Source: a virus
Lineage: Duplodnaviria > Heunggongvirae > Uroviricota > Caudoviricetes
DNA: 44,178 nt
IMG/VR virus record: IMGVR_UViG_3300045988_014135
Direction: 5' to 3' (one strand)
The notes beneath the pieces are model-generated. The model worked only from the letters and a program-made list of their open reading frames with translations. It ran no database searches and was not told the DNA's origin. Of the stretch, positions 2,947-37,214 are shown piece by piece. How positions within the stretch are numbered: position 1 is the first letter of the stretch; every line of letters starts with the position of its first letter. The translations under genes were made by a program, and so were the position numbers.

Positions 2947-2975
2947 TTGCGCGCACCAACATAATAGGGTACTAT
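2947..2975 (+). promoter_or_regulatory. sigma70-type promoter TTGCGC-N17-TACTAT with dyad AATAGGGTACTATT
   Basis: -35 2947-2952, -10 2970-2975, 17-bp spacer; dyad 2963..2976; AGGAG RBS and ATG at 3003 follow. Confidence 0.6.
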
Positions 2976-3002
2976 TCAGTTAACTTAAACAGGAGATGAT
3001 AA

Positions 3003-3524
3003 ATGGTTACTACAGTAATTACTTTCCCTGCGTATGTAGGGGCGAAAATATGCAGGGCTAAAAATGATGTTCGCTACTATTTGAACGCTTTTTACATAGA
3101 CCCTGAAGGATTGATAGTGTCTACGGACGGTCATAGATTGTTCGGCGACAATGTGAAGACCAACGTTGAGAAAGGGACTCTCATAGACATCAAAGGGAGA
3201 GAGCCTTCTAAATTTAACTACGCGGAGGTAAACCACGACAACGGCAGTGTATCTTTCTATGACGATAATCGTGCGCTTATATGTACACTTCCGGTAGATG
3301 TTGTAGAAGGAAACTTTCCTGACTGGAGACGCGTGGCGCACATCACACCGGGTGTTGTCGATAGTATAGGGTTCACTCTGCGCTATTTGGCAGACGCGTA
3401 CAAGATTTCTAAGGCATACAAAAATGAAATTGCTCGTTTCGATTTCCAGGACCAAACCAGAGGATGCAAAATACAATTTTCAAACACGGCCTTTATGGTG
3501 TTAATGCCTGCGCGATTTAAATAA
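3003..3524 (+). CDS. truncated beta sliding clamp (DnaN) homolog, domain II plus partial domain III
   Basis: NDVRYYLNAFYIDPEGLIVSTDGHRLF matches the DnaN segment DVRYYLNG...ATDGHRLA as recalled; FPDWRRV ~ FPDYRRV; C-terminal FMVLMPARFK ~ YVVMPMRL; only 173 aa; own promoter, AGGAG RBS and terminator; opposite strand to flanking genes. Confidence 0.6.
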   Translation: MVTTVITFPAYVGAKICRAKNDVRYYLNAFYIDPEGLIVSTDGHRLFGDNVKTNVEKGTLIDIKGREPSKFNYAEVNHDNGSVSFYDDNRALICTLPVDVVEGNFPDWRRVAHITPGVVDSIGFTLRYLADAYKISKAYKNEIARFDFQDQTRGCKIQFSNTAFMVLMPARFK

Positions 3525-3528
3525 AACT

Positions 3529-3552
3529 AAGGCCCCTTACGGGGCCTTTTAT
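3529..3552. terminator. bidirectional intrinsic terminator (AAGGCCCC-TTAC-GGGGCCTT + T-run)
   Basis: 8-bp GC-rich stem, 4-nt loop, T-run on plus strand; between convergent genes 3003..3524 and 3552..4010. Confidence 0.7.
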
Positions 3553-4010
3553 CATTCTGGCTTAGTGACCTTCGCCGCTTTACTGACAGCCTCTACACCA
3601 TCGGCATCAGTAACTTTAACGAAGTATTCACCTGCTGCGTTAACCGTCAGAGACAAAGCCTCTTCCGGGACGTTTACCACTTCCTTCCCGTCTTTGTACC
3701 AGGTCAGCACATACGGCGCTTTGCCCGCCTTAACTTCGACGGTGATGGTGGCGCTACCGTCGACCAGCTCGGTGTCTTTCGGTTGCACAGAGAAATACAC
3801 ATCGCCAGCATCTGCCAGATACGGAATCTCATAAAGCATACCAGCAGCAGAGAGTGCGATACCGGTCTTGTCCGCATACGGCATCTCGTCTACAGGTGTA
3901 CCTAGTACACTTTCATCTTCAACGTAGGTTACGTTCTCACCAGAACCGGATACACGGGCGTACTGGACTACGCGACGCGACGGCACATCAGTTACTTTAA
4001 AAAAGCCCAT
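3552..4010 (-). CDS. Ig-like domain structural protein (possible head decoration)
   Basis: C-terminal pattern YVLTWYKDGKEV...EYFVKVTD resembles bacterial Ig-like domains; sits in the head module. Confidence 0.4.
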   Translation of the reverse strand: MGFFKVTDVPSRRVVQYARVSGSGENVTYVEDESVLGTPVDEMPYADKTGIALSAAGMLYEIPYLADAGDVYFSVQPKDTELVDGSATITVEVKAGKAPYVLTWYKDGKEVVNVPEEALSLTVNAAGEYFVKVTDADGVEAVSKAAKVTKPE

Positions 4011-4013: not shown

Positions 4014-4637
4014 CTAAACCTCTTTCATTGAGTTAATCTTACGTAAGACGCCTTCGAAAAGGCGTGGGTCTATGCTATCGCAAAGGCCTTTGTATTCATA
4101 TGCTAATTCAATTTTTCTATGAAACCAGGCTACATGTGCCTCTTGAGCGGTTTCGTAAGCGCCTATTTGTTCAGATACACAATCCACGGATACTTGGGCG
4201 ATGAATCTTTTCTTTTGTTTATGAAAATGTACCCCAAGCGGGTGTTTGCCTCGAAGAGCGTCGTGGGCTGTGAGGAAAGTGTTAAGGGATTTGGGGATGA
4301 AAACACAGTTAGAAGCGTCATAAACCTTATTTCCTGGATTCAGTAAATCCTTATCTATCTGCCACCCAGGTACATAAAAATTATCAAACCAGACCTTGAA
4401 ATTACTGAACACCAACCAATCGTCCGACACGCGGCAGCCTATATAGGTTCTGTTTCTTTGCTGCCATTTCTTGTCGTAGCACCTCTTTAACATGTTCTTC
4501 CATCCGGCATAGGACGCTATATGCACCCCTCCGTGACTTATCGGTGAAACATCATTAATACCAACCCCAAAAACAATTCCCATATTAAATCCTATAAGAA
4601 AACCCCATGAAGATTGGTCGATGCCAGAGATAGGCAT
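4014..4637 (-). CDS. HNH homing endonuclease with AP2-like DNA-binding domain
   Basis: WKNMLKRCYD...YIGCRVSDDW...QIDKDLLNPGNKVYDASNCVFIPKSLN (HNH-type) and GVHFHKQKKRFIAQVSV...GAYETAQEAHVAW (AP2-like); free-standing between head genes; start uncertain. Confidence 0.55.
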   Translation of the reverse strand: MPISGIDQSSWGFLIGFNMGIVFGVGINDVSPISHGGVHIASYAGWKNMLKRCYDKKWQQRNRTYIGCRVSDDWLVFSNFKVWFDNFYVPGWQIDKDLLNPGNKVYDASNCVFIPKSLNTFLTAHDALRGKHPLGVHFHKQKKRFIAQVSVDCVSEQIGAYETAQEAHVAWFHRKIELAYEYKGLCDSIDPRLFEGVLRKINSMKEV

Positions 4638-6010: not shown

Positions 6011-6036
6011 AAGGCCCCATAACGGGGCCTTTTTAT
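6011..6036. terminator. bidirectional intrinsic terminator (AAGGCCCC-ATAAC-GGGGCCTT + T5)
   Basis: Hairpin plus T-run read directly; same hairpin family as 3529, 27414, 39844. Confidence 0.7.
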
Positions 6037-11012: not shown

Positions 11013-11097
11013 TTCTCTCTACTCCGTTCTCGTTGTCGATGGAGTAAATATAATAGGGTCGAAGGTAATAGTCAACTAGTCATTGCGGAAAATAGAT

Positions 11098-11128
11098 AAA
11101 AAAAATCCCGGCTGGGTCAGGGCCGGGA
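11098..11128 (-). terminator. intrinsic terminator
   Basis: Stem TCCCGGC/GCCGGGA followed on minus strand by U8. Confidence 0.7.
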
Positions 11129-11324
11129 TAAAACTGGAGAGTAGAGGGATGAAGCAGGAGGTGATTTAAGTATCGTCGGATTAGTCTTAGGTGTCAACAG
11201 AGATTCTCCGGCACGCGTTACCGCACTTTGGCCCGACCTTGTTACGGGTCCGCGGGGGTGATGGTACCCGGGATGCCCTCAATGTTGTTTAATCTTCTGT
11301 TGCCGTTAGTCTATCAAACTACGG

Positions 11325-13330: not shown

Positions 13331-13332
13331 AA

Positions 13333-14012: not shown

Positions 14013-14169
14013 TTTTCTGTTGCTCCCGGTCTCTTTTTAACATTTCGTTGGCTTCCGCCGGTGCCTCTTTCCAGGTATCGAACTGGCGCCCGTTGCACAC
14101 CCACGGAGCACCATTATAATTTCCTCTACGTCTTAAGTACCCGTACGATACTGCTTCTTTAAACGTCAT
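14002..14169 (-). CDS. small hypothetical protein
   Basis: 55-aa ORF MTFKEAVSYG..., overlaps neighbours; hand translated. Confidence 0.3.
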   Translation of the reverse strand: MTFKEAVSYGYLRRRGNYNGAPWVCNGRQFDTWKEAPAEANEMLKRDREQQKNEQ

Positions 14170-14299
14170 ATTCTTCACCCCTTTTCTCGTCCACCCTGAC
14201 TAGAAGCGATTTAGTGTCGCCGTCGCACACCGAAGTGCTGCCCATCATTTCGTAAGCATCTACCAGTTCGCCTAAAGTCCAGCTACCGTACCAACCCAT
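14159..14299 (-). CDS. small hypothetical protein
   Basis: 46-aa ORF preceded by GAGGAGAGACAGGAT; first gene after promoter 14331..14359. Confidence 0.35.
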   Translation of the reverse strand: MGWYGSWTLGELVDAYEMMGSTSVCDGDTKSLLVRVDEKRGEEYDV

Positions 14300-14330
14300 A
14301 TCCTGTCTCTCCTCTCGTTTGTGTAAATGA

Positions 14331-14359
14331 ATAGTAGCCTATTCTATCTTAGTGTGCAA
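14331..14359 (-). promoter_or_regulatory. promoter TTGCAC-N17-TACTAT with dyad GAATAG-N4-CTATTC
   Basis: Minus-strand -35 at 14359-14354, -10 at 14336-14331; 16-bp perfect palindrome 14329..14344. Confidence 0.6.
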
Positions 14360-14363: not shown

Positions 14364-14537
14364 ATTTTATTGGTGTTTTAAAGATAATCGTTCACTGCGA
14401 ATCCAGTAGTACCTCGGGCGTCGTACCCACTGACGCCATCGCATAACACGGTACTTGTTGCCGTCTGACGCAACAATAAGCCCGAATCGCTTTTCTCCGT
14501 TTCTACCGGTCCAGGTTACGATGTCATTCAGTTTCAT
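14364..14537 (-). CDS. small hypothetical protein
   Basis: 57-aa ORF MKLNDIVTWTG... with AGGAG RBS. Confidence 0.35.
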
Positions 14538-14589
14538 TGTTGCATCTCCTGCAATAGTCGCTTCGATTGTTGCGTTTGGTGAAATAGAA

Positions 14590-14628
14590 CAAAAATGAGA
14601 AAAATGATACGCTGCTGTGTAGCAGCGT
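14590..14628 (-). terminator. intrinsic terminator
   Basis: Stem ACGCTGCT/AGCAGCGT, loop GTGT, followed on minus strand by a U-rich tract. Confidence 0.6.
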
Positions 14629-14651
14629 AAGTCACTCAGTAAAATCCCAAA

Positions 14652-14849
14652 CTATTGACCTGTTACACCACCTGTTACACCACCTGTTACACCACCTGTT
14701 ACACCACCTGTTACACCAGCACGGTATTGCACACCAGCTTTCCACGCCCGCCACGCGAGACGCGTCTTAACGTTCAGGTACCCTTTCTTTGAACCTTTGT
14801 TAACCGGCAGACCCTCGACTACAGCCCACCGTTCAAATGCTTCTCTCAT
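14652..14849 (-). CDS. small protein with C-terminal (GVTG)5 repeat
   Basis: 65 aa; C-terminus encoded by five perfect 12-bp tandem repeats. Confidence 0.45.
   Translation of the reverse strand: MREAFERWAVVEGLPVNKGSKKGYLNVKTRLAWRAWKAGVQYRAGVTGGVTGGVTGGVTGGVTGQ
14659..14718. repeat. tandem repeat, 12 bp x 5 perfect copies (CCTGTTACACCA)
   Basis: Counted directly; in-frame within ORF 14652..14849. Confidence 0.95.
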
Positions 14850-14852
14850 AAC

Positions 14853-15044
14853 TTAGTCCTCATCATCTTCTAAGTCAGGGTACACTATGAAATCTCCAGG
14901 CCTTTGCAACTCAGCGCCAGCCATAAAATAACCAAGTGCTTCGGCCCTTTCGGAATCTGTTTTAAACTCAGACAAAGGGTATCTTTCATAGAACTTGTTA
15001 ATTAATAACGCCTGGTCAAACTTAGTCGCATCGTAACCGCTCAT
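14853..15044 (-). CDS. small hypothetical protein
   Basis: 63-aa ORF in coupled array. Confidence 0.45.
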   Translation of the reverse strand: MSGYDATKFDQALLINKFYERYPLSEFKTDSERAEALGYFMAGAELQRPGDFIVYPDLEDDED

Positions 15045-15235
15045 AACTCTACCCCATGGTGCTTAAGGAAACTGTTTAACTTGTACTCACGGTACTGTAC
15101 GGACGCTTTAGCGCGAGCGACAAACCATGCCTTTGAGGAAAAATATGGCGTACTCTCCCATGTATCGAGAGCTAATTTAGCGTTACTTAATCCGCGACGT
15201 AGACGCTCAAGGCGTAATTGGTTATACGGACTCAT
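15041..15235 (-). CDS. small hypothetical protein
   Basis: 64-aa ORF, start/stop overlap. Confidence 0.45.
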   Translation of the reverse strand: MSPYNQLRLERLRRGLSNAKLALDTWESTPYFSSKAWFVARAKASVQYREYKLNSFLKHHGVEL

Positions 15236-15504
15236 ACCAACCCCATCTTCTCTTTAACGTGCACCCAAAACTCACCACAATACCAGCACCACATAAGATT
15301 AGGTGTCTCGCGCACCCAACCATAATCCTTTCGGGCACGAATCGGAATAATGCCTTTAGTGAAATAATAACCCGTGCGCAGAAAATCAGGGTCGCGCGTC
15401 GCAGTGCGCCACATGTTATAAAACTGCTCCAGCCCGGCACCCCGGCGCATGACCCGTATTTTATGGTTATATTCCGCTACTGTTTTCAGTTCAGTGTTAT
15501 TCAT
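15232..15504 (-). CDS. hypothetical protein
   Basis: 90-aa ORF, start/stop overlap. Confidence 0.5.
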   Translation of the reverse strand: MNNTELKTVAEYNHKIRVMRRGAGLEQFYNMWRTATRDPDFLRTGYYFTKGIIPIRARKDYGWVRETPNLMWCWYCGEFWVHVKEKMGLV

Positions 15505-15692
15505 TTACGGCAACCTCCCTCAGAGTCGTCGGCACGAGCATCACGATTCGATGCCGTTCTCTCCCGCACTTCGACCATCCTTCCTACCTCTGCGGCGTAA
15601 TACACATACAGCTTTATTGCGTAATCTTTATTACTCGTGGTCTCTGTTATGGCTCCGTCTACGTATACGTCGTAAATTAATTCTTCCATCAC
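15501..15692 (-). CDS. small hypothetical protein
   Basis: 63-aa ORF, start/stop overlap. Confidence 0.45.
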   Translation of the reverse strand: MMEELIYDVYVDGAITETTSNKDYAIKLYVYYAAEVGRMVEVRERTASNRDARADDSEGGCRK

Positions 15693-15880
15693 TTCGCCCC
15701 TTTGAATTTAAAATTGTTGCCGATGAGTTCCATATCCTGCGCGTATAAAACGGTGAGATACGACCCCGTTAAAGATTCAGCAAAATAGATATTATTTTCT
15801 TTGTGAAATGCGAATATGACCGCAAATTCTCCGGTCTCAGTAACCCGAACCAACTGACCCTTCTTAAACATAACCCTCAC
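15689..15880 (-). CDS. small hypothetical protein (first early gene)
   Basis: 63-aa ORF just downstream of promoter 15906..15934. Confidence 0.5.
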   Translation of the reverse strand: MRVMFKKGQLVRVTETGEFAVIFAFHKENNIYFAESLTGSYLTVLYAQDMELIGNNFKFKGAK

Positions 15881-15905
15881 TCCTCTGTCTCGTTTCGATA
15901 AGTGA

Positions 15906-15934
15906 ATAGTATCCTATTATGTTGGGGTGTGCAA
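15906..15934 (-). promoter_or_regulatory. early promoter TTGCAC-N17-TACTAT with dyad AATAGTATCCTATT
   Basis: About 30 bp near-identical, in inverted orientation, to the promoter at 37186..37214; dyad 15905..15918. Confidence 0.65.
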
Positions 15935-16167
15935 GAGATTAGTTACGTTGCCGTTGTGATTCTTTAGGGAAGGTTGTGCCTTTATTCTTATTACTTGGTA
16001 ACTAAAGGGCAGGCCTTAAGCCTGCCCAATAATCGTTACATTTTTACGGTTGCGAATCTACGGCACATTAAGAAACAGTAGATATTTCAGCGGGTTACTT
16101 CTTTAAATGAGATTTAGATACACTTATCCTTAAACCCCAAGGCAAGCATCTCAGTTGTCTGGGAGGG

Positions 16168-16199
16168 GTTGACGAATCCCTCGGGGAGGGTTCGTCAAC
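16168..16199. repeat. long inverted repeat (14-bp stem, 3-nt loop, one bulge)
   Basis: GTTGACGAATCCCTC-GGG-GAGGGTTCGTCAAC; no flanking T-run on either strand; in divergent intergenic hub 15881..16353. Confidence 0.8.
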
Positions 16200-16292
16200 T
16201 CCGTAATATATACAAGTCCCAAAACCATTATACAAACATGTGTCAAGAACTTTCAATAACTTTTTTGTAAAGATTAAATATAGCAGGGATTG

Positions 16293-16321
16293 GTTGCTTT
16301 TACATCCCCGCTATCCTATAC
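16293..16321 (+). promoter_or_regulatory. promoter TTGCTT-N17-TATACT for the rightward operon
   Basis: -35 16293-16298, -10 16316-16321, then AGGAG RBS and ATG 16354. Confidence 0.5.
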
Positions 16322-16353
16322 TCAGCTCCACCAAACAAACAGGAGATATAAAA

Positions 16354-16536
16354 ATGCAACATTACATGACCCAGAATGAAGTAGCTGAGCGTATTGGGGT
16401 GACACGCCAGACAATTAATAACTGGTTGCGCAGTGGTAAATTCCCTGACTGCTGTATTAAAGTTATGGGTCGCCGTTTACCAGGAACATTTGACCGTAAT
16501 AAAGTTGAAGCGTGGATTAAGGAGAATGTGAAATGA
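16354..16536 (+). CDS. AlpA/Xis-like HTH DNA-binding protein
   Basis: MTQNEVAERIGVTRQTINNWLRSGKFP...RNKVEAWI pattern; start at ATG 16354 after AGGAG. Confidence 0.6.
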   Translation: MQHYMTQNEVAERIGVTRQTINNWLRSGKFPDCCIKVMGRRLPGTFDRNKVEAWIKENVK

Positions 16537-16892: not shown

Positions 16893-17021
16893 ATGACGAA
16901 GTTAATAGTTCCACAGTTGCGCCGCCAGAAACACGGCGCTGATTTCTTCGCACCGGTAAAGATGAACCGCGCAATGCGTCGTATGCAGGAAGCCTTAGAA
17001 CGCGCGGAGAAAAAGAAATGA
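16893..17021 (+). CDS. small hypothetical protein
   Basis: 42 aa from internal ATG 16893; stop overlaps primase start. Confidence 0.35.
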   Translation: MTKLIVPQLRRQKHGADFFAPVKMNRAMRRMQEALERAEKKK

Positions 17022-19225
17022 ATATTGTTTTTGCAACGCTGCGTAACACTTTCGATAAAAACCCGGTAGCCCGTGAAATGCCACTGGAGCAGTTTGTAGA
17101 GTATGTCTGCGATACATCGAAGCGCCTGTCCGTAGACCCGTCATGGACTAAGGAAGAGTACGACGCGGCCAAGATTAAGCAGAAAGCTATTGCGCCGGTT
17201 GGCGGTCGCCGTAAGAACGCGATTCTGGAAGACAGTGTGGTTAAGTTCGATTTCGACCATCTAAACCGTACCCAGTACCGCGACCTCACCCGCAAATTCA
17301 AGAACGCGCCGTTCTTCAATATTCTGCACACAACGGCGTCGCACCAGCACGCGTGTAAAAACGGTGACTACGCTTTCCGCGTTCTTGTACCGGCCCGCAC
17401 GCCGTTTAACTCTAACGACGCGTGGATGGTGCAACGTGCTATTTGTGCTGAGTTAGAAATAGACGAAGCATTGCGCGACCACTGCACAGAAGATGGCAAC
17501 CGCCTTATCTACCTGCCGCATAAAGAGTCGAAGATAACGGTTACAGAAGGGCGTGTTATCCGTGCCGAGCGGTACATCAAGAAAGCCGAAGAAATGGGGT
17601 TGCGTAAGCGTGAAGCTAAGACCCTTGCTGCCGATGAGCATGGGCTTAACGCGGATATAGCGCATTTCTGCGAAGCGGAGCTTGGCCTTGACGCTTTATC
17701 TTCCGGTCGCGGGTACGAAGTGCCTTGCCCTAACGAACACCTGCACACCGGCAAAGGCTCCACCAGCATCATGCTCGACGGTAAAGAAGTGCGCTTCGTG
17801 TGCCAGCACACAAACAACGGTGCTTGCACTGAGCTTAACCGCCGACAACATTTGGCCCTGCGTATGTGCGGCCTTCCGGACGAGCTTAACGTAGACAAGC
17901 AACCTATCAGTATTAACAGCATTCGTGCGGCTCTGCCTGATTTACCGGATGAAGAGATTGAAGAACTGCACCGCACAGAGAACGAGGAGCCTGTAACTTG
18001 TACACTGGAAGACCTTGAAGACGATGACGAGTTACCTGAACCGGTAAAGGCTGATTTCGTCGTTGAAGGGTACATGCCGTCGGATTGCATCTGGGACATC
18101 GTCGGGGAATCCGGCACATATAAATCATTCTATACGCTGGGTATGATGTACCTGAGCGCCGCAGGGTACCGGTTTGCAGGCGCTGATACACAGCGTTGCC
18201 ACCATTTCTATATTGACGGTGAGGGCGGTGCTGCCACACGCACCCGTATTGATGCACTCGCGGCTAAATACGGCGAGGAAGGTAAAGATTATGTACATGT
18301 CATCGATATGGGCGAAGTTGGCAAACTGAAAAGCCTGATTAAGCTAATGCGAGAAACTGCGGGTGGCGAACCCATCGGCATGGTCGCGTTCGATACTCTC
18401 AACCAGACACTGGCCCTGACGATTGATAAGTTCGACGAGAACAGTTCATCAACGGCAATCGGCATGGGTAAAGTTATCGCCATCCTTAAAGAAGTACGTG
18501 ACGCAACTAAAGCCGCGGTGGGCGTCGTCCACCATACACCGAAGGGCGGAAAGAAAGCCCGTGGCAGCGGGGCGCTGTATGCGGGTGTCGATGTGGAACT
18601 GACAATAGAACGTGCAACCGACCGTCAGATAAACGTATACCACTCGAAATTTAAGCACGGGCCTCAACAGAAAACGGTTGGCATGGTGCTGGAGTCCGTA
18701 CAGTTCCGTGAAGCGCCGCCGCCGAAAGAGTACCGCGCGGTTGAGTTCCTGGGCAGCACAGAGGAATACGGCACAATCGTAAACCTCGACCTGCCGGAAC
18801 CACACAAGGCGCTTGTTCTGATGCCGTGGGGCTTCGAGCCGTTCAAAACTGACGAGGAGAAAGAGCGGGAAGAAGGGTTAACTAACGAAGGTAAACAAAA
18901 AGTAAAGGAAGAAGTTAAACGCGGCAGGGATGAAGTAAGGAAGGAGTCGATACTTTCGGCACTGGAAGACCTGCAACAGTCAGATGACACAGGTCGCGGT
19001 TTTACTCAGCAGCAGATAGTGGCCCGTTCCGGTGACTTTTCTGTGACTAACACCCATCTTGATAAAATGCTGAAAGATGGTGAACTAATGCTAGGCTGTG
19101 ATGCTAATGGCGAAGTAGTACCGAGAACGTATCGTATACCTGAAAGAATAGGGGATAGATTAAGGCCGAAGACAATATACGAACCGAATGAAATGCTAGT
19201 GGTTACTGAGGAAGATTTGGAATAG
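17018..19225 (+). CDS. replication primase/helicase (N-terminal primase-like region, C-terminal P-loop/RecA-like NTPase)
   Basis: 735 aa; NTPase block VGESGTYKSF...FYIDGEGG...MVAFDTLNQ...VVHHTPKGG resembles RepA/AAA_25-type helicases; first large gene of the replication module. Confidence 0.55.
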   Translation: MNIVFATLRNTFDKNPVAREMPLEQFVEYVCDTSKRLSVDPSWTKEEYDAAKIKQKAIAPVGGRRKNAILEDSVVKFDFDHLNRTQYRDLTRKFKNAPFFNILHTTASHQHACKNGDYAFRVLVPARTPFNSNDAWMVQRAICAELEIDEALRDHCTEDGNRLIYLPHKESKITVTEGRVIRAERYIKKAEEMGLRKREAKTLAADEHGLNADIAHFCEAELGLDALSSGRGYEVPCPNEHLHTGKGSTSIMLDGKEVRFVCQHTNNGACTELNRRQHLALRMCGLPDELNVDKQPISINSIRAALPDLPDEEIEELHRTENEEPVTCTLEDLEDDDELPEPVKADFVVEGYMPSDCIWDIVGESGTYKSFYTLGMMYLSAAGYRFAGADTQRCHHFYIDGEGGAATRTRIDALAAKYGEEGKDYVHVIDMGEVGKLKSLIKLMRETAGGEPIGMVAFDTLNQTLALTIDKFDENSSSTAIGMGKVIAILKEVRDATKAAVGVVHHTPKGGKKARGSGALYAGVDVELTIERATDRQINVYHSKFKHGPQQKTVGMVLESVQFREAPPPKEYRAVEFLGSTEEYGTIVNLDLPEPHKALVLMPWGFEPFKTDEEKEREEGLTNEGKQKVKEEVKRGRDEVRKESILSALEDLQQSDDTGRGFTQQQIVARSGDFSVTNTHLDKMLKDGELMLGCDANGEVVPRTYRIPERIGDRLRPKTIYEPNEMLVVTEEDLE

Positions 19226-19253
19226 GTAAAAAGAAAGGGGCGTTAAGCCCCTT
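19226..19253 (-). terminator. intrinsic terminator after the XRE gene
   Basis: GGGG/CCCC stem with 7-nt loop, U-rich tail on minus strand. Confidence 0.55.
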
Positions 19254-19458
19254 CACCGAACGCCAGCCACTTGGCGTCTACTTCCAGCACTTCCGCCAGT
19301 TTAAACAGCGTCGCCGGGCGGACGTCCTGAGTCACCCCAAGCGCAAGCTGGTTAATAGCGCCCTGGGAAACGCCCGCCAGAACAGCCAGACGGCGCTGGG
19401 AGATGCCGAGTTCTTTACGGCGTTGTTCTACACGGATACCTAGTTCAGATGGTTGCAT
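19243..19458 (-). CDS. XRE-family (Cro/CI-type) HTH transcriptional regulator
   Basis: 71 aa; LGISQRRLAVLAGVSQGAINQLALG helix-turn-helix; AAGGAG RBS; divergent from 19583 gene. Confidence 0.7.
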   Translation of the reverse strand: MQPSELGIRVEQRRKELGISQRRLAVLAGVSQGAINQLALGVTQDVRPATLFKLAEVLEVDAKWLAFGEGA

Positions 19459-19489
19459 GTCAATTACTCCTTAGTCAGTTGATATGTGA

Positions 19490-19518
19490 ATAGTACCATA
19501 TTAATTATTTTAGAAAAG
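19490..19518 (-). promoter_or_regulatory. promoter of the XRE regulator gene with degenerate dyad
   Basis: Minus-strand -10 TACTAT at 19495-19490; dyad 19489..19502 has one half-site mismatch (AATAT); weak -35. Confidence 0.5.
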
Positions 19519-19522
19519 CCCA

Positions 19523-19551
19523 TTGACAAGTGAATAGTTCGCTATTATAGT
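19523..19551 (+). promoter_or_regulatory. promoter TTGACA-N17-TATAGT with dyad AATAGTTCGCTATT
   Basis: -35 19523-19528, -10 19546-19551; dyad 19533..19546 inside the spacer. Confidence 0.65.
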
Positions 19552-19582
19552 TAGCCTATACCAAACGAGAGGAGAGAAACAA

Positions 19583-20083
19583 ATGTTAGAACAGTTCTTA
19601 AAATTACTGGAGCGTTTCGTAGTTGCCCATGAACTGATTGCGGCGAACAGTGCGAAACAAGTTGTTCATGCCGCCGCGCCGCTGGAAGTAGAGACGGTAG
19701 TGTATACCGAAGAATCAGCTTCCGAGTGCGAAGAAGAAACAACAAAAGAAATCACGGTTGAAGGTGAAGACGTCGTTGACACTAAACCTGCGGAGGAAGA
19801 GAAGCCGAAACGCAAGCCGCGTAAAGCTAAAGTAGAGGAACCAACGCCAGAGCCGGAAGAAGAGAAGGAAGAAGTCGATTACCAGTCTCTGCGTGACCAG
19901 ATTCAGGCTATCGACGATGCAATTAACGAAGGCCCGAGCAATGCCGCGTGTGACGATTCGGATGAACTGCTAGAAGAGTTCACCGGCAAGAAGATGAAGA
20001 TTGCCGCGATTAAAGACGAAGACCTGGCCGAGTACCTGGAACGCCTGACGGCAATCAAGAACAAGTATTTCAAAGAAGAATAA
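19583..20083 (+). CDS. highly acidic protein (function unknown)
   Basis: 166 aa, long Glu/Asp runs (EPTPEPEEEKEE), one basic patch KPKRKPRKAK. Confidence 0.5.
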   Translation: MLEQFLKLLERFVVAHELIAANSAKQVVHAAAPLEVETVVYTEESASECEEETTKEITVEGEDVVDTKPAEEEKPKRKPRKAKVEEPTPEPEEEKEEVDYQSLRDQIQAIDDAINEGPSNAACDDSDELLEEFTGKKMKIAAIKDEDLAEYLERLTAIKNKYFKEE

Positions 20084-20088
20084 CTATC

Positions 20089-20110: not shown

Positions 20111-20126
20111 ACTGAGGGTCGGAATT

Positions 20127-20399
20127 ATGATTTACCAACTCTACCGCGCCGTTGACAGGCGGGATAACATAGAGGCGTTATGGCTGTTGCGTGCGCCGTC
20201 CGGTGCACACCAGATGGAAGAGATGGCGTACTTAGGAAAAGTACCACGGCCTAAAGATATAGGCCGTCACGTGTCGCAGATTAAGCGCACGACTTTTGCC
20301 AAGCCTGACTTTTATGTCTTCGAGTCGATGTATGGGTGGGCTATGCACTGCGACCATAAGACACGACATTTAATTGACCAGTGGGAGAGCAGGGTATGA
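20127..20399 (+). CDS. hypothetical protein
   Basis: 90-aa ORF; stop overlaps next start. Confidence 0.45.
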   Translation: MIYQLYRAVDRRDNIEALWLLRAPSGAHQMEEMAYLGKVPRPKDIGRHVSQIKRTTFAKPDFYVFESMYGWAMHCDHKTRHLIDQWESRV

Positions 20400-21637
20400 T
20401 TCTAAAAGAACGCGGTGGCAATAACGACGTACACGCATTACTGTCGCCATCCGGTGCTAAAAAGTGGCTTACCTGCGCCGCATCGCTGGCCTGTGAAAAA
20501 GACATTCCAAATACGTCAGGTAAAGCCGCCGTATTGGGTACCGCCATGCACACCATAGCTGAGATGCACTTAAACCAGTACATCAAAGGCACTGCGCTGC
20601 CGTTAGAGCGTGAAGTCGGCGCTTACGTGCTGGATGAAGGTAAAGGCCAGATTAAGGCGCTAATCAGCCCGATGAAAGGCGCGGTACTGATTACGGCGGA
20701 TATGATTGAGCAAGTGCGCAAGTATACCGACTACTGCAAAGCGATTATCGATGTAGCGACTTACGCCAAGCTGGAAATGCGGGTAAATCTTACCGAGGTA
20801 TTGCATCCGGGCTACGAAGGCGTTGAGACATTCGGAACCGCTGACCTTGTTGCCGTTCAGGAACTGGCGAACACCGAAGAGCACATGCTCATTATTGGCG
20901 ACCTGAAAACAGGACGGCATCGTGTCGAAGCGAAAGAAAACAAGCAGCTTATGCTTTACGCGCTGGGTGTTTATCGCCGACTAAAGCGACGTTATAGCAT
21001 AACAACCGTTCGTCTGGTCATCTTCCAGCCTTACGCTGGGGGCGCGTCAGAGTGGGACATCTCGGTTGAGGGCCTTGAACTGTTCGCTAAGTTTGCGCAG
21101 AAACGCGCGCTGTTGGCCCTTGATGCTTATTCCCGCGGCAAGAAGAACCTGAAAGCGTCGGACTTCAAGCCGTCTGTCGATGGTTGTCAGTGGTGTCGGT
21201 TCTCTGAACAATGCGCTGCGCGTACAAAAACCGTTAACTCGGTACTGGCGGAAGAACTGGAAGACGATTTTGCGCTGGAACTTACGCCGGAGCAACTCGT
21301 AGCTGAGTATGAGAAGTTGCCGTTGTTGCGCCAGCACATCGACAAGGTTGAGAAAGCTATGGCCGCCGCGTTGCATTCCGGTAAGAAAGTGCCAGGGTAC
21401 AAACTGGTTGAAGGTCGTCCTGGTAATCGTGCGTGGAAAGATGCGGAGAAAGTAGCAGAACTCTACGGCGACAAGCTGACTAAAGAAGTGCTCATGTCAC
21501 CTACCGAAGCTGTTAAAGTCATACCGGAAGAAGAACTGAAAGACTTCATTACCCGTAAGCCCGGCGCGCCATGCGTCACAACGGCGGATGACAAACGTCC
21601 TGAGTGGAATCAGGTTAGTGAAGAAGATTTGGAATAA
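20396..21637 (+). CDS. Cas4-like PD-(D/E)XK exonuclease (DUF2800-type)
   Basis: Nuclease core ...FGTADLVAV...IIGDLKTGR...QLMLYALG and C-terminal Cys cluster CQWCRFSEQC; start at ATG 20396 after GGGAGAG. Confidence 0.65.
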   Translation: MILKERGGNNDVHALLSPSGAKKWLTCAASLACEKDIPNTSGKAAVLGTAMHTIAEMHLNQYIKGTALPLEREVGAYVLDEGKGQIKALISPMKGAVLITADMIEQVRKYTDYCKAIIDVATYAKLEMRVNLTEVLHPGYEGVETFGTADLVAVQELANTEEHMLIIGDLKTGRHRVEAKENKQLMLYALGVYRRLKRRYSITTVRLVIFQPYAGGASEWDISVEGLELFAKFAQKRALLALDAYSRGKKNLKASDFKPSVDGCQWCRFSEQCAARTKTVNSVLAEELEDDFALELTPEQLVAEYEKLPLLRQHIDKVEKAMAAALHSGKKVPGYKLVEGRPGNRAWKDAEKVAELYGDKLTKEVLMSPTEAVKVIPEEELKDFITRKPGAPCVTTADDKRPEWNQVSEEDLE

Positions 21638-21641
21638 AGTG

Positions 21642-21670
21642 TTGACACCTGAATAGTTAGCTATTATATT
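21642..21670 (+). promoter_or_regulatory. promoter TTGACA-N17-TATATT with dyad AATAGTTAGCTATT
   Basis: -35 21642-21647, -10 21665-21670; dyad 21652..21665. Confidence 0.65.
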
Positions 21671-21726
21671 TCTAATCACTGGCCGGGCAGCTTCCCGGAG
21701 TAAACTGAAAACTGAGGAATCGAGAT

Positions 21727-22353
21727 ATGGGTATTAAACTGAATCTGCGTAAAGTAAACACTGCATGGGTTAACGTATTTGAACGCGAAAAAGACCGTGA
21801 AAACGATGACGGCTCAATCACTAAAGGCCAGTACAGCGCAACGATTATCATGCCGCCGGACCATGCTCAAATCGACGCGCTCTACGACACTGTTTACGCT
21901 GTAGTCGAAGAAGCATTGGGTGCCGCCGCTGCCGAAAAATGGATGAAGTCTAACTACGGCGAAGGTAAGCACATGGATAAATGTGCGATTAAAGATATTG
22001 CTGAGCGCGACAATCCGTTTGAAGACTTCCCGGAAGGCTTCTACTTCAAAGCGAAGGCTCAGAAACAGCCACTGATTGTAACCTCTAAAAAAGGTGAGAC
22101 TCAGGTAGAACAGGACTTCAACGTAGACGGCGAACAGATTGAAGGGGAACAGGTTTACAGCGGCTGCGTTGCTAACGTAAGCGTCGAAATCTGGTTCAGC
22201 CAGAAATACAAAGTCCTCGGCGTCAATCTGCTGGCGATTAAATACGTTGGTGAAGGTAAAGCGTTTGGTGGTTCTAAAGTTGCTGCGAGCGTCGATGACC
22301 TGGAAGACGACGAAGAAGACGAAGCACCGCGCCGCGAACGTCGCCGCCGCTAA
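21727..22353 (+). CDS. ssDNA-binding protein candidate (DUF2815-like)
   Basis: 208 aa between Cas4-like nuclease and PolA, a position where DUF2815 SSB-like genes commonly sit; acidic C-terminal region DDLEDDEEDE. Confidence 0.45.
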   Translation: MGIKLNLRKVNTAWVNVFEREKDRENDDGSITKGQYSATIIMPPDHAQIDALYDTVYAVVEEALGAAAAEKWMKSNYGEGKHMDKCAIKDIAERDNPFEDFPEGFYFKAKAQKQPLIVTSKKGETQVEQDFNVDGEQIEGEQVYSGCVANVSVEIWFSQKYKVLGVNLLAIKYVGEGKAFGGSKVAASVDDLEDDEEDEAPRRERRRR

Positions 22354-22372
22354 TATCTGAATCAATTTAACT

Positions 22373-22397
22373 AGGGCCCTTCATTGGGCCTTTTTAC
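22373..22397 (+). terminator. intrinsic terminator
   Basis: Stem AGGGCCC/GGGCCT, loop TTCATT, T5 run. Confidence 0.65.
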
Positions 22398-22414
22398 TAA
22401 GGGTCGAAAATAAT

Positions 22415-24613
22415 ATGCCTAATCTATTGTATCTGGATACTGAGACATTCTCTGAAGCGGACTTAAAGAAAGTCGGATCGTATGCGTACGCGGAGCATCC
22501 GACAACCGAGATTATAATTTGTACATATGCCATTGATGATGGGCCCGTAGAAGTATGGGATTGCACTTCCGAACCGGTAATGCCAATAAGCCTCCGCATT
22601 GCGCTGCGCAATGTTATGCGCGGACGTATGAGAATTGTAGGTCATAACTTTTTAATGTTCGACAGGCTTGTTATGAAGCACTGCTGGGGCGTTGATATCA
22701 AGCCAAGAAACACCATTGACACGATGATTAGAGCGTTTCGTCACGCGTTGCCGGGTTCACTTGACGCATTGTGCGAAGTGCTGGGCGTATCTGCGGACAA
22801 CGCGAAAGACAAACGCGGTAAAGCACTGATTCAGCGTTTTTCTAAACCGACGCCGAAGAACTACAAAATCCGCCGTTACACCGCCGAAACTCACCCAGAT
22901 GAGTGGGCGCTGTTCATCAAGTACGCCGTGAGCGACATCACTGCGATGCGTGAAGTCTTCCATAAGCTGCCGCGTTGGGGTAACTCCGAGTTCGAAGACC
23001 GTGTACTGGAACTTGACCAGTTAATCAACGACCGCGGGTTTAAGGTTGATGTGGCGCTGGCGGAAGCTGCGATTGAGGCCGTAGAGAAACACAAGGCGCA
23101 GTTGCAGGAAGAAGCCCAACGCAAATACGGCGGCTCGCTAACTGGCAAAGACTTTCTACCTATTCTGCGGGAACTGGCCCCCGCGCACCGTATTCATAAC
23201 GCGCAGAAGTCGACACTCAATGACCTGCTGGCGGATGATGATTTGCCAGATGACGCCCGCACGATTATCGAAATGCGCCTCGGGGCCGCGTCTACAGCAT
23301 CGACGAAATATAACCCGCTGCTGCTGGGTCGCTCGTCGGACGACCGTCGTCGCGGTTGCTTGCAGTACGGCGGGGCAAAACGCACTTTGCGATGGGCGGG
23401 TAAAGGCTTCCAGCCGCAGAACCTGGCGCGCGGGTACTATCACGATGATGAACTGGATAAAGGCATTTCAGCGTTACTTAAGGGCCGTGCGCATCGCCGT
23501 TTTGATGTGGCCAAGCTAACGGCATCTACGGTTCGTAGCTGCATTATCCCGGAAGCCGGGCATAAGTTTGTCGTCGCCGATTACTCTAACGTTGAGGGTC
23601 GTGGGCTTGCGTGGCTGGCGGGCGAAGAAACCGCGCTCGATACGTTCCGCGCCGGACTGGATATTTACTGCGTAACCGCGGGCAAGATGTTTGGTATGGA
23701 CCCTGATGACATTAAGAAAAACTTCAAGGAAATCAGACAGATAGGCAAAGCATGCGAACTGGGTCTCGGCTACGAGGGCGGCGTCGGAGCGTTCGTTACG
23801 TTCGCCAAAAACTTAGGCCTCGACCTTATTGAGATGGCAAAAACAATGGACGGGACTTTCCCCGACCACATCTGGGCTGCTACCGCACGTGGGTATGAGT
23901 GGGCGCGTATTCAGGAAGCCAAGCGACCACCGCATCCCGGTGAAAAGGATGACCGACCATCATATATTCTGGACAAGAAAGTGTGGCGCACATGTGATGC
24001 AATCAAGCGTATGTGGCGCGAGTCACACCCGGAAACAGTAGCGTTCTGGCGCGACCTTAAAGATGGAATTTTAGCCGCTGTTCGTAATCCTGGTCGTGAA
24101 TTTTGGGCCGGGGCACACTTGCGCCGGAATGGTGAAAGGGCTATCCGCATATGGCGTACCGTAGAATTTGATTCGTCGGGCAGGAAGGTTCCTGGCTGGT
24201 GGTTGTGTATGGAGTTGCCGTCAGGCCGTATCCTCTCGTATCCGGGAATCGGCGTTAGTGTGACAAAGGAAACAGACGAAGACGGACGGGTAAACACGAA
24301 TGTGCGAATCAAGTATCAGGGTGAAAACCAGTTAACCCGCCAATGGACTACCCTGTACACCCACGGCGGCAAAGCCTGCGAAAACATTGTTCAGGCGCTG
24401 TGCCGTGATTTACTCGCATATGCGATGATTAATGTTGAGGGTGGCGGGTATCCCATCGTGCTTTCGGTACACGATGAACTGGTGTGTGAAACTCCGGATA
24501 CCCCAGAGTACACGGTGGCCGAACTGGAAAAATTAATGTGTTCTCTGCCTGAGTGGGCAGAAGGCTTCCCTCTTGTCGCGGAAGGTGCGGAGATGAAGCG
24601 CTATGCTAAGTAA
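22415..24613 (+). CDS. DNA polymerase I (family A) with 3'-5' exonuclease domain
   Basis: Exo motif LYLDTETFSE; polymerase motif A DYSNVEGRGLAWLAGE, motif B RQIGKACELGLGYEGG, motif C VHDELV. Confidence 0.85.
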   Translation: MPNLLYLDTETFSEADLKKVGSYAYAEHPTTEIIICTYAIDDGPVEVWDCTSEPVMPISLRIALRNVMRGRMRIVGHNFLMFDRLVMKHCWGVDIKPRNTIDTMIRAFRHALPGSLDALCEVLGVSADNAKDKRGKALIQRFSKPTPKNYKIRRYTAETHPDEWALFIKYAVSDITAMREVFHKLPRWGNSEFEDRVLELDQLINDRGFKVDVALAEAAIEAVEKHKAQLQEEAQRKYGGSLTGKDFLPILRELAPAHRIHNAQKSTLNDLLADDDLPDDARTIIEMRLGAASTASTKYNPLLLGRSSDDRRRGCLQYGGAKRTLRWAGKGFQPQNLARGYYHDDELDKGISALLKGRAHRRFDVAKLTASTVRSCIIPEAGHKFVVADYSNVEGRGLAWLAGEETALDTFRAGLDIYCVTAGKMFGMDPDDIKKNFKEIRQIGKACELGLGYEGGVGAFVTFAKNLGLDLIEMAKTMDGTFPDHIWAATARGYEWARIQEAKRPPHPGEKDDRPSYILDKKVWRTCDAIKRMWRESHPETVAFWRDLKDGILAAVRNPGREFWAGAHLRRNGERAIRIWRTVEFDSSGRKVPGWWLCMELPSGRILSYPGIGVSVTKETDEDGRVNTNVRIKYQGENQLTRQWTTLYTHGGKACENIVQALCRDLLAYAMINVEGGGYPIVLSVHDELVCETPDTPEYTVAELEKLMCSLPEWAEGFPLVAEGAEMKRYAK

Positions 24614-24734
24614 ACTGATTATCGCGGTACTGGCGGGATTTGCCGCCGGTGTCTACTGTCACGAGGGCCAATACGGCATGATTGTCGCCGTATTATGCAT
24701 GTTTATCGCAATTTATCTGTGGGTGCTGGAATGA
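24603..24734 (+). CDS. small membrane protein
   Basis: 43 aa, two hydrophobic segments; hand translated, overlaps PolA stop. Confidence 0.3.
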   Translation: MLSKLIIAVLAGFAAGVYCHEGQYGMIVAVLCMFIAIYLWVLE

Positions 24735-24820
24735 AAATTTACTGGTTATACGAAGAAGACTGTCGAATCTGTCCGCGTTGCGGGATTGAGCATACGAAAC
24801 GTGAGGGGTGTGTATTATGA
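24731..24820 (+). CDS. micro-ORF with Cys motif (zinc-ribbon-like)
   Basis: 29 aa with CRICPRCG...EGC; overlapping starts/stops. Confidence 0.25.
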   Translation: MKIYWLYEEDCRICPRCGIEHTKREGCVL

Positions 24821-25011
24821 GTAACAAACCATTTAGTAAGAAACTAGCCGCGTTAGTGGATATGCCGGAATGGGAATTTATCATGGTAATGGGAGATGGG
24901 TTCTTTAGTGACGTTTGTGCCGGGTGTACGCACAAAGGCGTTTACTATTCGGAACACGACATCTATCAAGCGTACTTCCTGCGTAACCCAGATGCGGAGC
25001 CGTTGTTATGA
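24817..25011 (+). CDS. small hypothetical protein
   Basis: 64 aa from ATG 24817. Confidence 0.4.
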   Translation: MSNKPFSKKLAALVDMPEWEFIMVMGDGFFSDVCAGCTHKGVYYSEHDIYQAYFLRNPDAEPLL

Positions 25012-25160: not shown

Positions 25161-25441
25161 CCCCGGAGGGCAAGATTCAGAAATACGCAAAAGAGCGATT
25201 CGAGGCCCTGGGGGGCCTCGTACGCAAATTGTCGTACGAAAATAGAGTGGGCGCTCCTGACCTGCTGGTAATTCTCCCCGGCGGCATCGTATGGTTCGTC
25301 GAGGTTAAGAAAGACGAAAATACGAAGCCTGACCTGCACCAGTTACGAGAGCACGAGCGGATGCGTAAACGTGGTGCAAATATTTTTGTCGTCGGGTCGT
25401 TCAAACAGGTTGACGACCTAATAGCGAACTATTATAGTTAG
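25157..25441 (+). CDS. VRR-NUC domain nuclease
   Basis: 94 aa with PD-(D/E)XK-like core DLLVILPGGIVWFVEVKKD. Confidence 0.6.
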   Translation: MTPEGKIQKYAKERFEALGGLVRKLSYENRVGAPDLLVILPGGIVWFVEVKKDENTKPDLHQLREHERMRKRGANIFVVGSFKQVDDLIANYYS

Positions 25442-25471: not shown

Positions 25472-25666
25472 ATGAAACATGAATACGACCGCAAACCAGC
25501 ACGTGACATCGTACCGGGCGACATGATTTTCAACGTTAAGACCCGTCGTCCTGTTGCCGTTGATACAGTGTTCGTCGAGTCGAACGGTAAACTGGTCATC
25601 GAAGATGTAACCGGTAACGTTACGGCGTTTGGGCGGAAGGAATTGGTACTCTACGTTAAGGGTTGA
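25472..25666 (+). CDS. small hypothetical protein (PGD-motif family)
   Basis: 64 aa; DIVPGDMIF motif shared with 10603..10767. Confidence 0.45.
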   Translation: MKHEYDRKPARDIVPGDMIFNVKTRRPVAVDTVFVESNGKLVIEDVTGNVTAFGRKELVLYVKG

Positions 25667-27409: not shown

Positions 27410-27440
27410 AGAAAAGGCCCCGATTGGGGCCTTAGTTTTA
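27409..27440. terminator. bidirectional intrinsic terminator (AAGGCCCC-GATT-GGGGCCTT)
   Basis: Between convergent replication and tail operons; T-rich on both sides. Confidence 0.7.
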
Positions 27441-36303: not shown

Positions 36304-36655
36304 CGTTTCTACCCTCGAAAATAGCGTCTAAGCTCATGATGATGTCAGATTCGAACATGCCTATATTCTGGCCTGAAACGGTGCTGTATGCCACTAAATC
36401 CGACCATCTTAACTGTTCGCGCGGGTACATCTTGATGCCATCATCGTCCACTCGGCGGGTGAATTTGATTTCCCTGTACTTCTCGAAGGTGGTTAATAGC
36501 TCAGGGGGGCATTCCGGCCCTGTGTCCGGCGTTGCTTCCGGCGCGTCTTGCATAACCCCCATAGCAATTAGCGCGGCTTTATGCCCGTCGGCGATACTGT
36601 CAAACTCCCGCCGTTTGTGGCGGGTTATGAAGTTCCAACGGGCAAACTGGAGCAA
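36296..36655 (-). CDS. tail assembly chaperone, T-like frame
   Basis: -1 frame relative to the G-like gene, open across the G stop; TTG-initiated as drawn, more likely a frameshift extension. Confidence 0.4.
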   Translation of the reverse strand: MLQFARWNFITRHKRREFDSIADGHKAALIAMGVMQDAPEATPDTGPECPPELLTTFEKYREIKFTRRVDDDGIKMYPREQLRWSDLVAYSTVSGQNIGMFESDIIMSLDAIFEGRNDG

Positions 36656-36660
36656 CGCGT

Positions 36661-37077
36661 CTACTTTTCCTGCAATTGGTGAAGCTGTTCATTGTGGAAA
36701 ACAACAACGTGTTCAGCGAGTCGTTTATATTGTGAGAAAAGAGTATTCAGGTTCTCTTTATTAAATTCATCGTCGAGACTCCAACCGTTAACCAGTTCAA
36801 GCGCTAACTGGCGGTTAAGGTCCGTTGCGGCGTCTTCCATCTTGATGTTGTATTCCGAGAAATCTTTCAGTTCCTCGCATTTATCGCGAAGCGGTTTCAA
36901 TTTACCTAATGCCGCGCGGTACGCAAGTGTAAACGCCCTCATAGCTTTAACAGCAACGTCTGCCTCCGGTGAAACAACGTTCAGCCACTCCCCTGAATCG
37001 GTGCCGTCTTTCAGTGGTATCGGCATACGGGCGCCTTTTTCTGCCTCAGCTTCGTAATAAAAATCAGAAAGTTTCAT
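36661..37077 (-). CDS. tail assembly chaperone (G-like)
   Basis: 138-aa acidic protein between major tail and tape measure genes. Confidence 0.55.
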   Translation of the reverse strand: MKLSDFYYEAEAEKGARMPIPLKDGTDSGEWLNVVSPEADVAVKAMRAFTLAYRAALGKLKPLRDKCEELKDFSEYNIKMEDAATDLNRQLALELVNGWSLDDEFNKENLNTLFSQYKRLAEHVVVFHNEQLHQLQEK

Positions 37078-37185
37078 TCTTTAATCCTTTGGTTAAGAGG
37101 TTACAGGTTAATGGTAAATGCGCCAGACGGGAACCACCCGCTTTTCGTGTGCGACACTAGGCGCAAAATTATTCTATCACATTAC

Positions 37186-37214
37186 TTGCGCACCCCAACA
37201 TAATAGGATACTAT
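37186..37214 (+). promoter_or_regulatory. promoter TTGCGC-N17-TACTAT with dyad AATAGGATACTATT
   Basis: -35 37186-37191, -10 37209-37214; dyad 37202..37215; near-identical to early promoter 15906..15934. Confidence 0.65.

Follow-up and report, generated by a model that had tools for sequence, protein, structure and literature searches.

The window analysed here is a 44,178-bp stretch (IMG/VR record IMGVR_UViG_3300045988_014135) of a virulent siphophage of the genus Kagunavirus (Guernseyvirinae), an E. coli phage. Analysis of this window revealed a 14-bp palindrome, AATAG-N4-CTATT (the dyad), in the core of ten sigma-70-type promoters, and this dyad is probably the operator of a phage-encoded 71-aa Cro-like helix-turn-helix (HTH) protein, HTH1, at ordinary sigma-70 promoters used by host RNA polymerase. 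An earlier reading of the letters alone (the sequence-only reading) had proposed that the dyad marks a single-repressor regulon governed by an XRE-type HTH gene. Promoter anatomy, protein homology and conservation support this proposal, while the site set proved to be larger (10 sites) and a second HTH gene (16354..16536) was found, which leaves the word 'single' in doubt. The gene proposed to encode the protein that reads the dyad is:

19243..19458, minus strand: HTH1, a 71-aa Cro-like XRE/HTH_3 protein

Over window positions 17000-25000, sequence identity is ~92% to Escherichia phage fBC-Eco01 and 88-91% to the K1B4, XY2 and Bas7x phages. The published description of fBC-Eco01 reports neither an integrase nor lysogeny genes (PMC9825357), and no CI repressor is present in the annotations of the relatives fBC-Eco01, K1G and Ent1.

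Number and location of the dyads

Seven perfect matches to AATAGNNNNCTATT (AATAG-N4-CTATT) were found, at 2963, 14330, 15905, 19533, 21652, 25420 and 37202, while dinucleotide shuffles of the window gave an expectation of 0.03 (at least seven copies in 0/100 shuffles), which bears out the earlier estimate that the palindrome should occur well under once by chance. With one mismatch allowed, 10 dyads were obtained where 1.14 were expected, the extra sites being 2872, 11067 and 19489, and many copies in coding regions were not seen. The sites 2872 and 11067 are kept at orthologous places in relatives and therefore belong to the site set. The earlier count of six perfect copies and one imperfect copy thus holds for the sites that it listed and falls short of the full set of seven perfect and three one-mismatch copies, having passed over 25420, 2872 and 11067. 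The coordinates given there (2947, 14331, 15906, 19490, 19523, 21642 and 37186) are starts of -35 or -10 hexamers and match the hexamer assignments below.

The same motif was recovered de novo, since AATAG-N4-CTATT ranked first in the window among all 5-mer dyads with gaps of 0-8. A PHIRE-like all-against-all comparison of 18-mers found 8 of the 10 sites (2872 and 11067 were missed) together with the terminators. A de novo dyad count with one mismatch over whole genomes was uninformative, being swamped by GC-rich codon-driven palindromes. The non-coding share of the window is 8.4% by crude open reading frame (ORF) cover, and 8 of the 10 sites lie entirely inside it. Site 37202 was scored as coding because the ORF call was over-extended (the imm gene starts at 37253), and site 25420 lies within the final 22 nt of one ORF, immediately upstream of the next.

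Position classes of the dyad in sigma-70 promoters

All ten dyads lie within sigma-70-type core promoters; the sequence-only reading had likewise placed its sites in promoters. The early, replication and accessory-cassette promoters carry the common motif as it had proposed, and the promoters of the structural-gene operons also belong to the set. The sites and their promoters are as follows:

2872..2885, minus strand: one-mismatch copy AATAG-TTGA-CTTTT across the -35 of TTGACT(2880-2875)-17-TGaTAAGCT(2857-2852); spanin, scaffold and capsid genes
2963..2976, plus strand: perfect copy across the -10 of TTGCGC(2947-2952)-17-TACTAT(2970-2975); accessory gene 3003..3524
11067..11080, minus strand: one-mismatch copy ACTAG-TTGA-CTATT across the -35 of TTGACT(11075-11070)-17-TATATT(11052-11047); small genes, terminase and portal
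14330..14343, minus strand: perfect copy across the -10 of TTGCAC(14359-14354)-17-TACTAT(14336-14331); leftward into 14299..14159 and onward toward the lysis genes
15905..15918, minus strand: perfect copy across the -10 of TTGCAC(15934-15929)-17-TACTAT(15911-15906); small-gene block 15880..14367
19489..19502, minus strand: one-mismatch copy, AATATGGTACTATT when read on this strand, over the -10 of the promoter of the HTH1 gene itself; hexamer TACTAT at 19490-19495 with a TGn extension at 19497-19498, as read from the sequence
19533..19546, plus strand: perfect copy in the spacer of TTGACA(19523-19528)-17-TATAGT(19546-19551), 11/12 promoter matches; rightward early promoter of 19583..20083, 20127..20399 and the exonuclease gene
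21652..21665, plus strand: perfect copy in the spacer of TTGACA(21642-21647)-17-TATATT(21665-21670); single-stranded DNA (ssDNA)-binding protein gene 21727..22353, then the DNA polymerase gene
25420..25433, plus strand: perfect copy in the spacer of TTGACG(25410-25415)-17-TATAGT(25433-25438); 25472..25666 and the helicase gene
37202..37215, plus strand: perfect copy across the -10 of TTGCGC(37186-37191)-17-TACTAT(37209-37214); imm gene 37253..37447, exonuclease, PNK-phosphatase and ATPase cassette

The -35/-10 spacer is 17 nt at 9 of the 10 dyad promoters, and the promoter of HTH1 itself shows no clear -35 but an extended -10. With this hexamer spacing held constant, the dyad begins 4 or 10 nt past the -35 hexamer or contains the -35, which places its centre at -18.5 (from the spacer into the -10), -12.5 (across the -10) or -33.5 (across the -35), and the promoters accordingly form three classes. 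Class A (2963 and 37202 rightward; 14330, 15905 and 19489 leftward) has the form TTGC[AG]C-N10-dyad with the dyad at -19 to -6, and its -10 hexamer TACTAT is formed by the third and fourth bases of the centre together with the right arm. This class drives the two accessory cassettes, two small-gene blocks and the HTH gene itself. Class B (19533, 21652 and 25420, all rightward) has the form TTGAC[AG]-N4-dyad with the dyad at -25 to -12, the final T of the dyad being the first base of TATAGT or TATATT. Class B promoters are near consensus (10-11/12) and head the early operon, the ssDNA-binding protein and DNA polymerase genes, and the helicase gene. In class C (11067 and 2872, both leftward) the -35 hexamer TTGACT is made of the central TTGA and the CT of the right arm, and this class stands at the start of the terminase/portal block (11067) and of the spanin/scaffold/capsid block (2872).

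The sites share an 18-bp element, TGAATAG-N4-CTATTAT, whose orientation relative to transcription is opposite in class A and class B. Because the motif moves by 6 bp, flips and occupies either hexamer, it is a separate binding site and not a promoter element, and all three of its positions are repressor positions. The over-long spacer of 19-20 bp that marks MerR-type promoters was not found here, the spacer being 17 nt at the nine promoters above; that of the early promoter is 18 nt in some Kagunavirus relatives.

An automatic search for the best -35/-10 pair was noisy at the weak promoters with the dyad across the -10, where it offered alternatives such as CATAAT. The assignment TTGCRC-17-TACTAT was kept on the ground that its -35 recurs at each of these four sites and in relatives. 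At 2963, 14330 and 15905 the opposite strand showed no convincing promoter, and a leftward TTAACA-17-TAGTAT at 37202 was dropped, as it is not conserved in K1G. Another leftward candidate beside the same site was retained:

37198..37171, minus strand: candidate tail-operon promoter TTGGGG(37198-37193)-16-TGaTAGAAT(37176-37171), read from the sequence only

This element is kept in fBC-Eco01 and K1G and is the best candidate for the tail operon, although its identification is not confident. Relative to it, the 37202 dyad lies at about -44.5, an activator-like position.

HTH1 is a homologue of 434 Cro

HTH1 matched Pfam HTH_3 with 47.2 bits (cut-off 23, E-value = 2.3e-12). Its best PDB sequence match was phage 434 Cro, also of 71 aa, over the full length (E-value = 5.6e-7, ~37-40% identity), followed by the 434 and P22 repressors. 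The AlphaFold2 (AF2) model of HTH1 shows a compact fold of five helices, helices 2 and 3 making up the HTH, with a pLDDT of 84 (single-sequence input; 2/5 models confident), and Foldseek returned 434 Cro (2cro) as the top PDB match (40% identity, TM 0.73-0.79), with 434 repressor also among the top matches. The XRE HTH gene named by the sequence-only reading is thus a 434 Cro homologue by sequence and by fold, and the GenBank record of VB_EcoS-Golestan calls its HTH gene 'CRO'. The gene divergent from HTH1 matches phrog_3127, a family of unassigned function.

The sequence-only reading had placed two dyad-bearing promoters on either side of the HTH gene. They in fact lie back to back in one intergenic region upstream of it (19459-19582). 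The other part of that description, a degenerate copy in the gene's own promoter, was confirmed, and this copy is invariant in every Kagunavirus copy collected (27 sites; 24 loci aligned). As read from the sequence, its mismatch (AATAT for AATAG) makes the TG of an extended -10, TGgTACTAT, and the extended -10 may compensate for the absent -35 at this promoter.

The 434 recognition helix begins with a Gln (Q28 by 434 numbering), which is kept in 6 of the 7 HTH1 clades compared, the helix of the Scapp clade reading SRQAVNA, and in most clades the half-site starts with A. A code relating recognition helix to half-site was considered: only the pairing of Gln with the first A, and perhaps of Ser32 with T at base 2, could be aligned, which is too unclean to claim.

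Conservation in Kagunaviruses and Jerseyviruses

The dyad was also the top dyad in fBC-Eco01 (7 copies), K1G (6) and Jerseyvirus Ent1 (4). In IMG/VR it was the top dyad in 24/24 Kagunavirus loci, and in 11/11 Jerseyvirus loci it was top or joint top with at least 2 copies. At orthologous sites in these loci (for instance 24 copies collected for 15905 and 20 for 14330) the arms are fixed, and the central N4 drifts unless it is also part of a promoter hexamer. Five N4 variants were found at the early promoter and seven at the helicase promoter. In class A only the first two of the four bases vary, and in class C none vary, the centre always being TTGA.

All three imperfect copies are kept imperfect in relatives. 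The 11067 site is conserved in fBC-Eco01, K1G and Ent1 (L003, 40891), and the 2872 site in fBC-Eco01 (6154) and K1G (4404). The terminase-side operator reads ACTAG-TTGA-CTATT in Kagunaviruses versus AATAG-TTGA-CTAGT in Ent1, each with one mismatch and on opposite arms. The occurrence of an identical variant half-site on opposite arms suggests selection for a deliberately weaker site, that is, an operator held sub-optimal in both genera.

Related dyads in more distant clades

Dyads of 14 bp at the same promoter position were also found in more distant clades, and these phages encode HTH1 homologues. Locus L042 carries 4 copies of AATAC-N4-GTATT (0.23 expected) and locus L050 carries 5 copies of ATTAG-N4-CTAAA (0.34 expected), counts that were each reached in 0/200 shuffles; L054 also has ATTAG-N4-CTAAA. 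Half-sites are looser, A[AT]TA[GC], in the L044 group and the Cornellviruses, and the Cornellvirus dyad ATTAG-N4-CTAAT taken alone is only weakly above chance (4 copies, 1.03 expected, reached by 2/100 shuffles). Serratia phage Tsm2 has two perfect AATAG dyads, one in a class A context and one in a class B context. The 18-mer comparison, which succeeded in Kagunaviruses and Jerseyviruses, found nothing repeated in Cornellvirus, Tsm2, SE1 or Scapp, for which the degenerate pattern A[AT]TA[GCT]-N4-[GCA]TA[AT]T was needed.

Two dyad copies lie just upstream of the HTH1 gene in L042 and L050, as they do in the window. The two operators are 44-45 bp apart in Kagunaviruses (44 in the window), 45 in L050, 55 in Jerseyviruses and 65 in L042. 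This spacing in steps of about one helical turn would keep both operators on the same face of the helix, which hints at dimer-dimer interaction in the four clades.

HTH1 homologues with 33-100% identity were found in all dyad-bearing clades compared, and ~560 phage records encode one. The position of the gene differs among clades: in Cornellvirus, SE1, Tsm2 and Scapp (L004 to L007), HTH1 is co-directional with the primase gene and heads the primase operon, and the second HTH gene is absent; in Kagunaviruses and Jerseyviruses HTH1 is inverted and the second HTH gene heads that operon.

Alternative explanations of the dyad

The motif itself has already been published, under a wrong interpretation. 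In fBC-Eco01 seven PHIRE 'phage promoters' with the consensus tgAATAGTa-ccTATTat-T were assigned to a phage-encoded RNA polymerase, without mention of a palindrome, position classes, imperfect copies or a link to an HTH gene (PMC9825357). Five of these seven sites are perfect dyads, the sixth is a one-mismatch dyad and the seventh (3337-3382, OM272052) is a terminator hairpin. The VB_EcoS-Golestan paper (PMC7203180) lists seven PHIRE promoters as well, unspecified ones that we only assume to be the same dyads. That the motif is the promoter consensus itself, read by a phage-encoded or modified polymerase or simply reflecting what these promoters look like with no separate binder, would agree with the PHIRE annotation, with a right arm that supplies part of the -10 hexamer (in TACTAT, or as the initial T of TATAGT) and with common flanks beyond the dyad (TGAATAG-N4-CTATTAT). 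We consider this highly improbable, and the assignment to a phage polymerase is almost certainly wrong. The sites have normal -35 and -10 hexamers 17 nt apart, and the dyad has no fixed position or orientation relative to them, shifting by 6 bp, inverting, and sitting on the -35 at two sites. The left arm has no promoter role, yet it is conserved as strongly as the right arm. No RNA polymerase or sigma gene is present in the annotations of fBC-Eco01, K1G and Ent1, or among 36 mostly small window ORFs scanned with Pfam (the large ORFs were taken as known replication and structural genes by collinearity with annotated relatives).

The same Pfam scans revealed two clear DNA-binding proteins, together with a sub-threshold NinH-like ORF. 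Besides HTH1, the second is:

16354..16536, plus strand: HTH2, a 60-aa HTH_17 (excisionase/AlpA-like) protein at the head of the primase operon; Pfam HTH_17, phrog_66

HTH2 could read the dyad instead of or together with HTH1, as an early repressor or as a factor loaded onto RNA polymerase. It belongs to a DNA-binding family, its own promoter-like TTGCTT-17-TATACT (read from the sequence) has no dyad, several promoter-like sites have terminator-like hairpins close downstream, and RNA-seq of phage K1B4 puts HTH2 among just four early genes. We nevertheless regard this as unlikely. HTH2 is confined to Kagunaviruses and Jerseyviruses, with no tblastn hit at E <= 1 in the VSiA, SE1, Tsm2 and Scapp genomes or in loci L042-L055, and dyads exist where it is not detectable, namely the perfect AATAG dyads of Tsm2 and the variants of L042, L050 and the Cornellviruses. 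The layout of a dyad within a promoter thus occurs without HTH2, and HTH1 is the common factor. Furthermore, in K1G and L017 the HTH2 protein is 70% identical with a changed putative recognition helix, and the dyad is unchanged. A PDB sequence search with HTH2 returned no antiterminator such as AlpA. As a rule, HTH_17 proteins recognise direct repeats or bind as single subunits, and 14-bp palindromes are not their usual target; this also counts against HTH2.

A reader among the ~30 small window ORFs without Pfam match, that is, a phage protein of fewer than 100 aa and of unassigned fold, is quite unlikely, as none of these ORFs was shown to be conserved across all dyad clades, whereas HTH1 is conserved in all of them, has a suitable fold and is encoded next to an operator pair. 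A DNA-binding protein of the Enterobacterales host might explain why very similar dyads occur in Escherichia, Salmonella and Serratia phages although their HTH1 proteins are only 41-51% identical. This is very unlikely, since other clades carry plainly distinct arms (AATAC, ATTAG) in the corresponding promoter position, and the operator pair beside the phage HTH gene in each clade is a typical sign of a self-encoded autoregulated repressor. To our knowledge, no E. coli regulator has the consensus AATAG-N4-CTATT.

Several observations weigh against HTH1 as the reader. Kagunavirus and Jerseyvirus share the core dyad despite unlike recognition helices (SQGAINQ and SQSLITH, respectively), and the half-site changes among clades do not map cleanly to single residue changes. 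HTH2 is present in both of these strict-AATAG genera with 80-84% identity between them, and so tracks the dyad better there. The promoters with the dyad across the -10 have weak -35 and -10 hexamers (4/6 each). Finally, the K1B4 RNA-seq (5-120 min, with a latent period of 30 min) puts HTH1 in the middle class and both DNA polymerase and imm in the late class. The K1B4 paper gives gene classes only and the sampling was coarse; these data neither support nor exclude early shut-off.

Proposed mode of action

HTH1 binding and dimerisation, and the sign and timing of regulation, are predicted here from the geometry of the sites and from homology. At the start of infection no repressor would be present and the promoters would fire via host RNA polymerase. 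As HTH1 accumulates, a dimer would bind each 14-bp dyad and block RNA polymerase, because each dyad overlaps a -10 or -35 hexamer. Operator quality appears to be graded across the promoters. The perfect operators at the early, replication and accessory-cassette promoters would be filled first, while the one-mismatch operators, those of HTH1 itself and of the two structural-operon promoters, would be filled later or only partly, so that these promoters would be shut off last or least. Binding of HTH1 to its own promoter would amount to negative autoregulation.

A bolder possibility is that HTH1 and host sigma-70 polymerase run the whole temporal programme of this virulent subfamily without activator, sigma factor, antiterminator or phage polymerase, with timing set only by operator quality and position. 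The dimer bound at 37202 might then double as an activator of the divergent tail-operon promoter, acting from about -44.5 in the manner of lambda CI at PRM. We hold this extended scheme to be doubtful; if it were true, the clade-specific operator variants would be a natural set of compact orthogonal repressor-operator pairs.

In work on therapy and food biocontrol directed at E. coli and Salmonella, Kagunaviruses and Jerseyviruses rank among the most frequently isolated siphophages, and the phage collection searched holds more than 500 of their genomes. In a literature search that left most subscription journals outside, no paper was found that links the motif to an HTH protein, a palindrome or position classes, nor any mechanistic study of Jersey-like or MB78 promoters or of Cro-like operators in virulent phages; no paper analysing transcription control of Kagunaviruses and Jerseyviruses was found either. 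Read as operators, the dyads give a map of ten promoters and one regulator and predict which genes are shut off and in what order, and loss or overexpression of the 71-aa gene should alter the infection programme. Small repressor-operator pairs with diverged specificities (AATAG, AATAC, ATTAG) could also serve as genetic parts.

Other elements of the window

Near-identical terminator hairpins, AAGGCCCC-N4/5-GGGGCCTT, lie at gene-module borders (3529-3548, 6011-6031, 27414-27433 and 39844-39863). Those at 3529 and 6011 were called on both strands, and similar hairpins are present in relatives. Rfam and tRNA scans of the window gave no matches. Further features are:

3003..3524, plus strand: accessory gene with a match to phrog_3007 (RusA-like resolvase / processivity-factor-like)
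4014..4637, minus strand: HNH endonuclease ORF (phrog_953) among the head genes, without counterpart there in the fBC-Eco01 annotation
2852-2627, minus strand: leader of ~218 nt after the promoter 2880..2852, with a terminator-like hairpin (2671..2652) ~25 nt before the spanin start codon
11197..11095, minus strand: promoter-like TTGACA-17-GATACT, then ~70 nt further on a hairpin and eight consecutive U (fold z-score -2.7)
15881-16353: non-coding region of 473 bp with TTGAAA-18-TATAAT at 16256..16227 (minus strand, 11/12 sigma-70 match), an imperfect 15-nt inverted repeat (16165-16179 / 16188-16202) and a terminator (16027..16007)

The hairpin in the spanin leader could be an attenuation or RNA-stability element. 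The 11197..11095 element, flanked by the endolysin gene and the terminase-side block and without an Rfam match, could be a small non-coding RNA. The match at 16256..16227 ties in score with the early promoter at 19523, and these two are the best sigma-70 matches in the window; the surrounding region may yield a leftward RNA that is not translated, or may serve as a replication origin.

Comparison with known regulatory systems

The closest likeness is to phage 434 Cro, which is also a five-helix HTH protein of 71 aa encoded divergently from the early operon, with operators on both promoters. Operators of 434 (ACAA-N6-TTGT) are 14 bp long and two-fold symmetric, with conserved outer bases and a variable centre, and they overlap promoter hexamers, as do the dyads. 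In contrast to 434, the phage analysed here is virulent and has no CI partner, integrase or lysogeny module; its operators are single and scattered over ten promoters, whereas those of 434 form two tripartite clusters; and the half-site is AATAG around a 4-bp centre, its binding by HTH1 being predicted. The arrangement of a lambdoid immunity switch, with CI divergent from cro and tripartite operators together with integration functions, was not found.

As with lambda Cro, a small repressor made from an early transcript would lower early transcription and its own synthesis. However, lambda Cro has another fold and acts only at OR and OL. The late genes of lambda need the Q antiterminator, whereas no antiterminator was identified here and the two structural-operon promoters carry weak operators. 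The controller (C) proteins of restriction-modification systems (C.AhdI, C.BclI and C.Esp1396I), which were among the fold matches of the HTH1 model, are likewise small XRE-type HTH dimers that bind core-promoter palindromes and set timing after cell entry; they differ in controlling their own operon via two adjacent sites with both activation and repression, while the dyads are dispersed over ten promoters. Taken together, HTH1 and the dyad are most likely a Cro-type repressor and its operators, and the setting is unusual: a strictly virulent phage that carries these operators on essentially every recognisable promoter.

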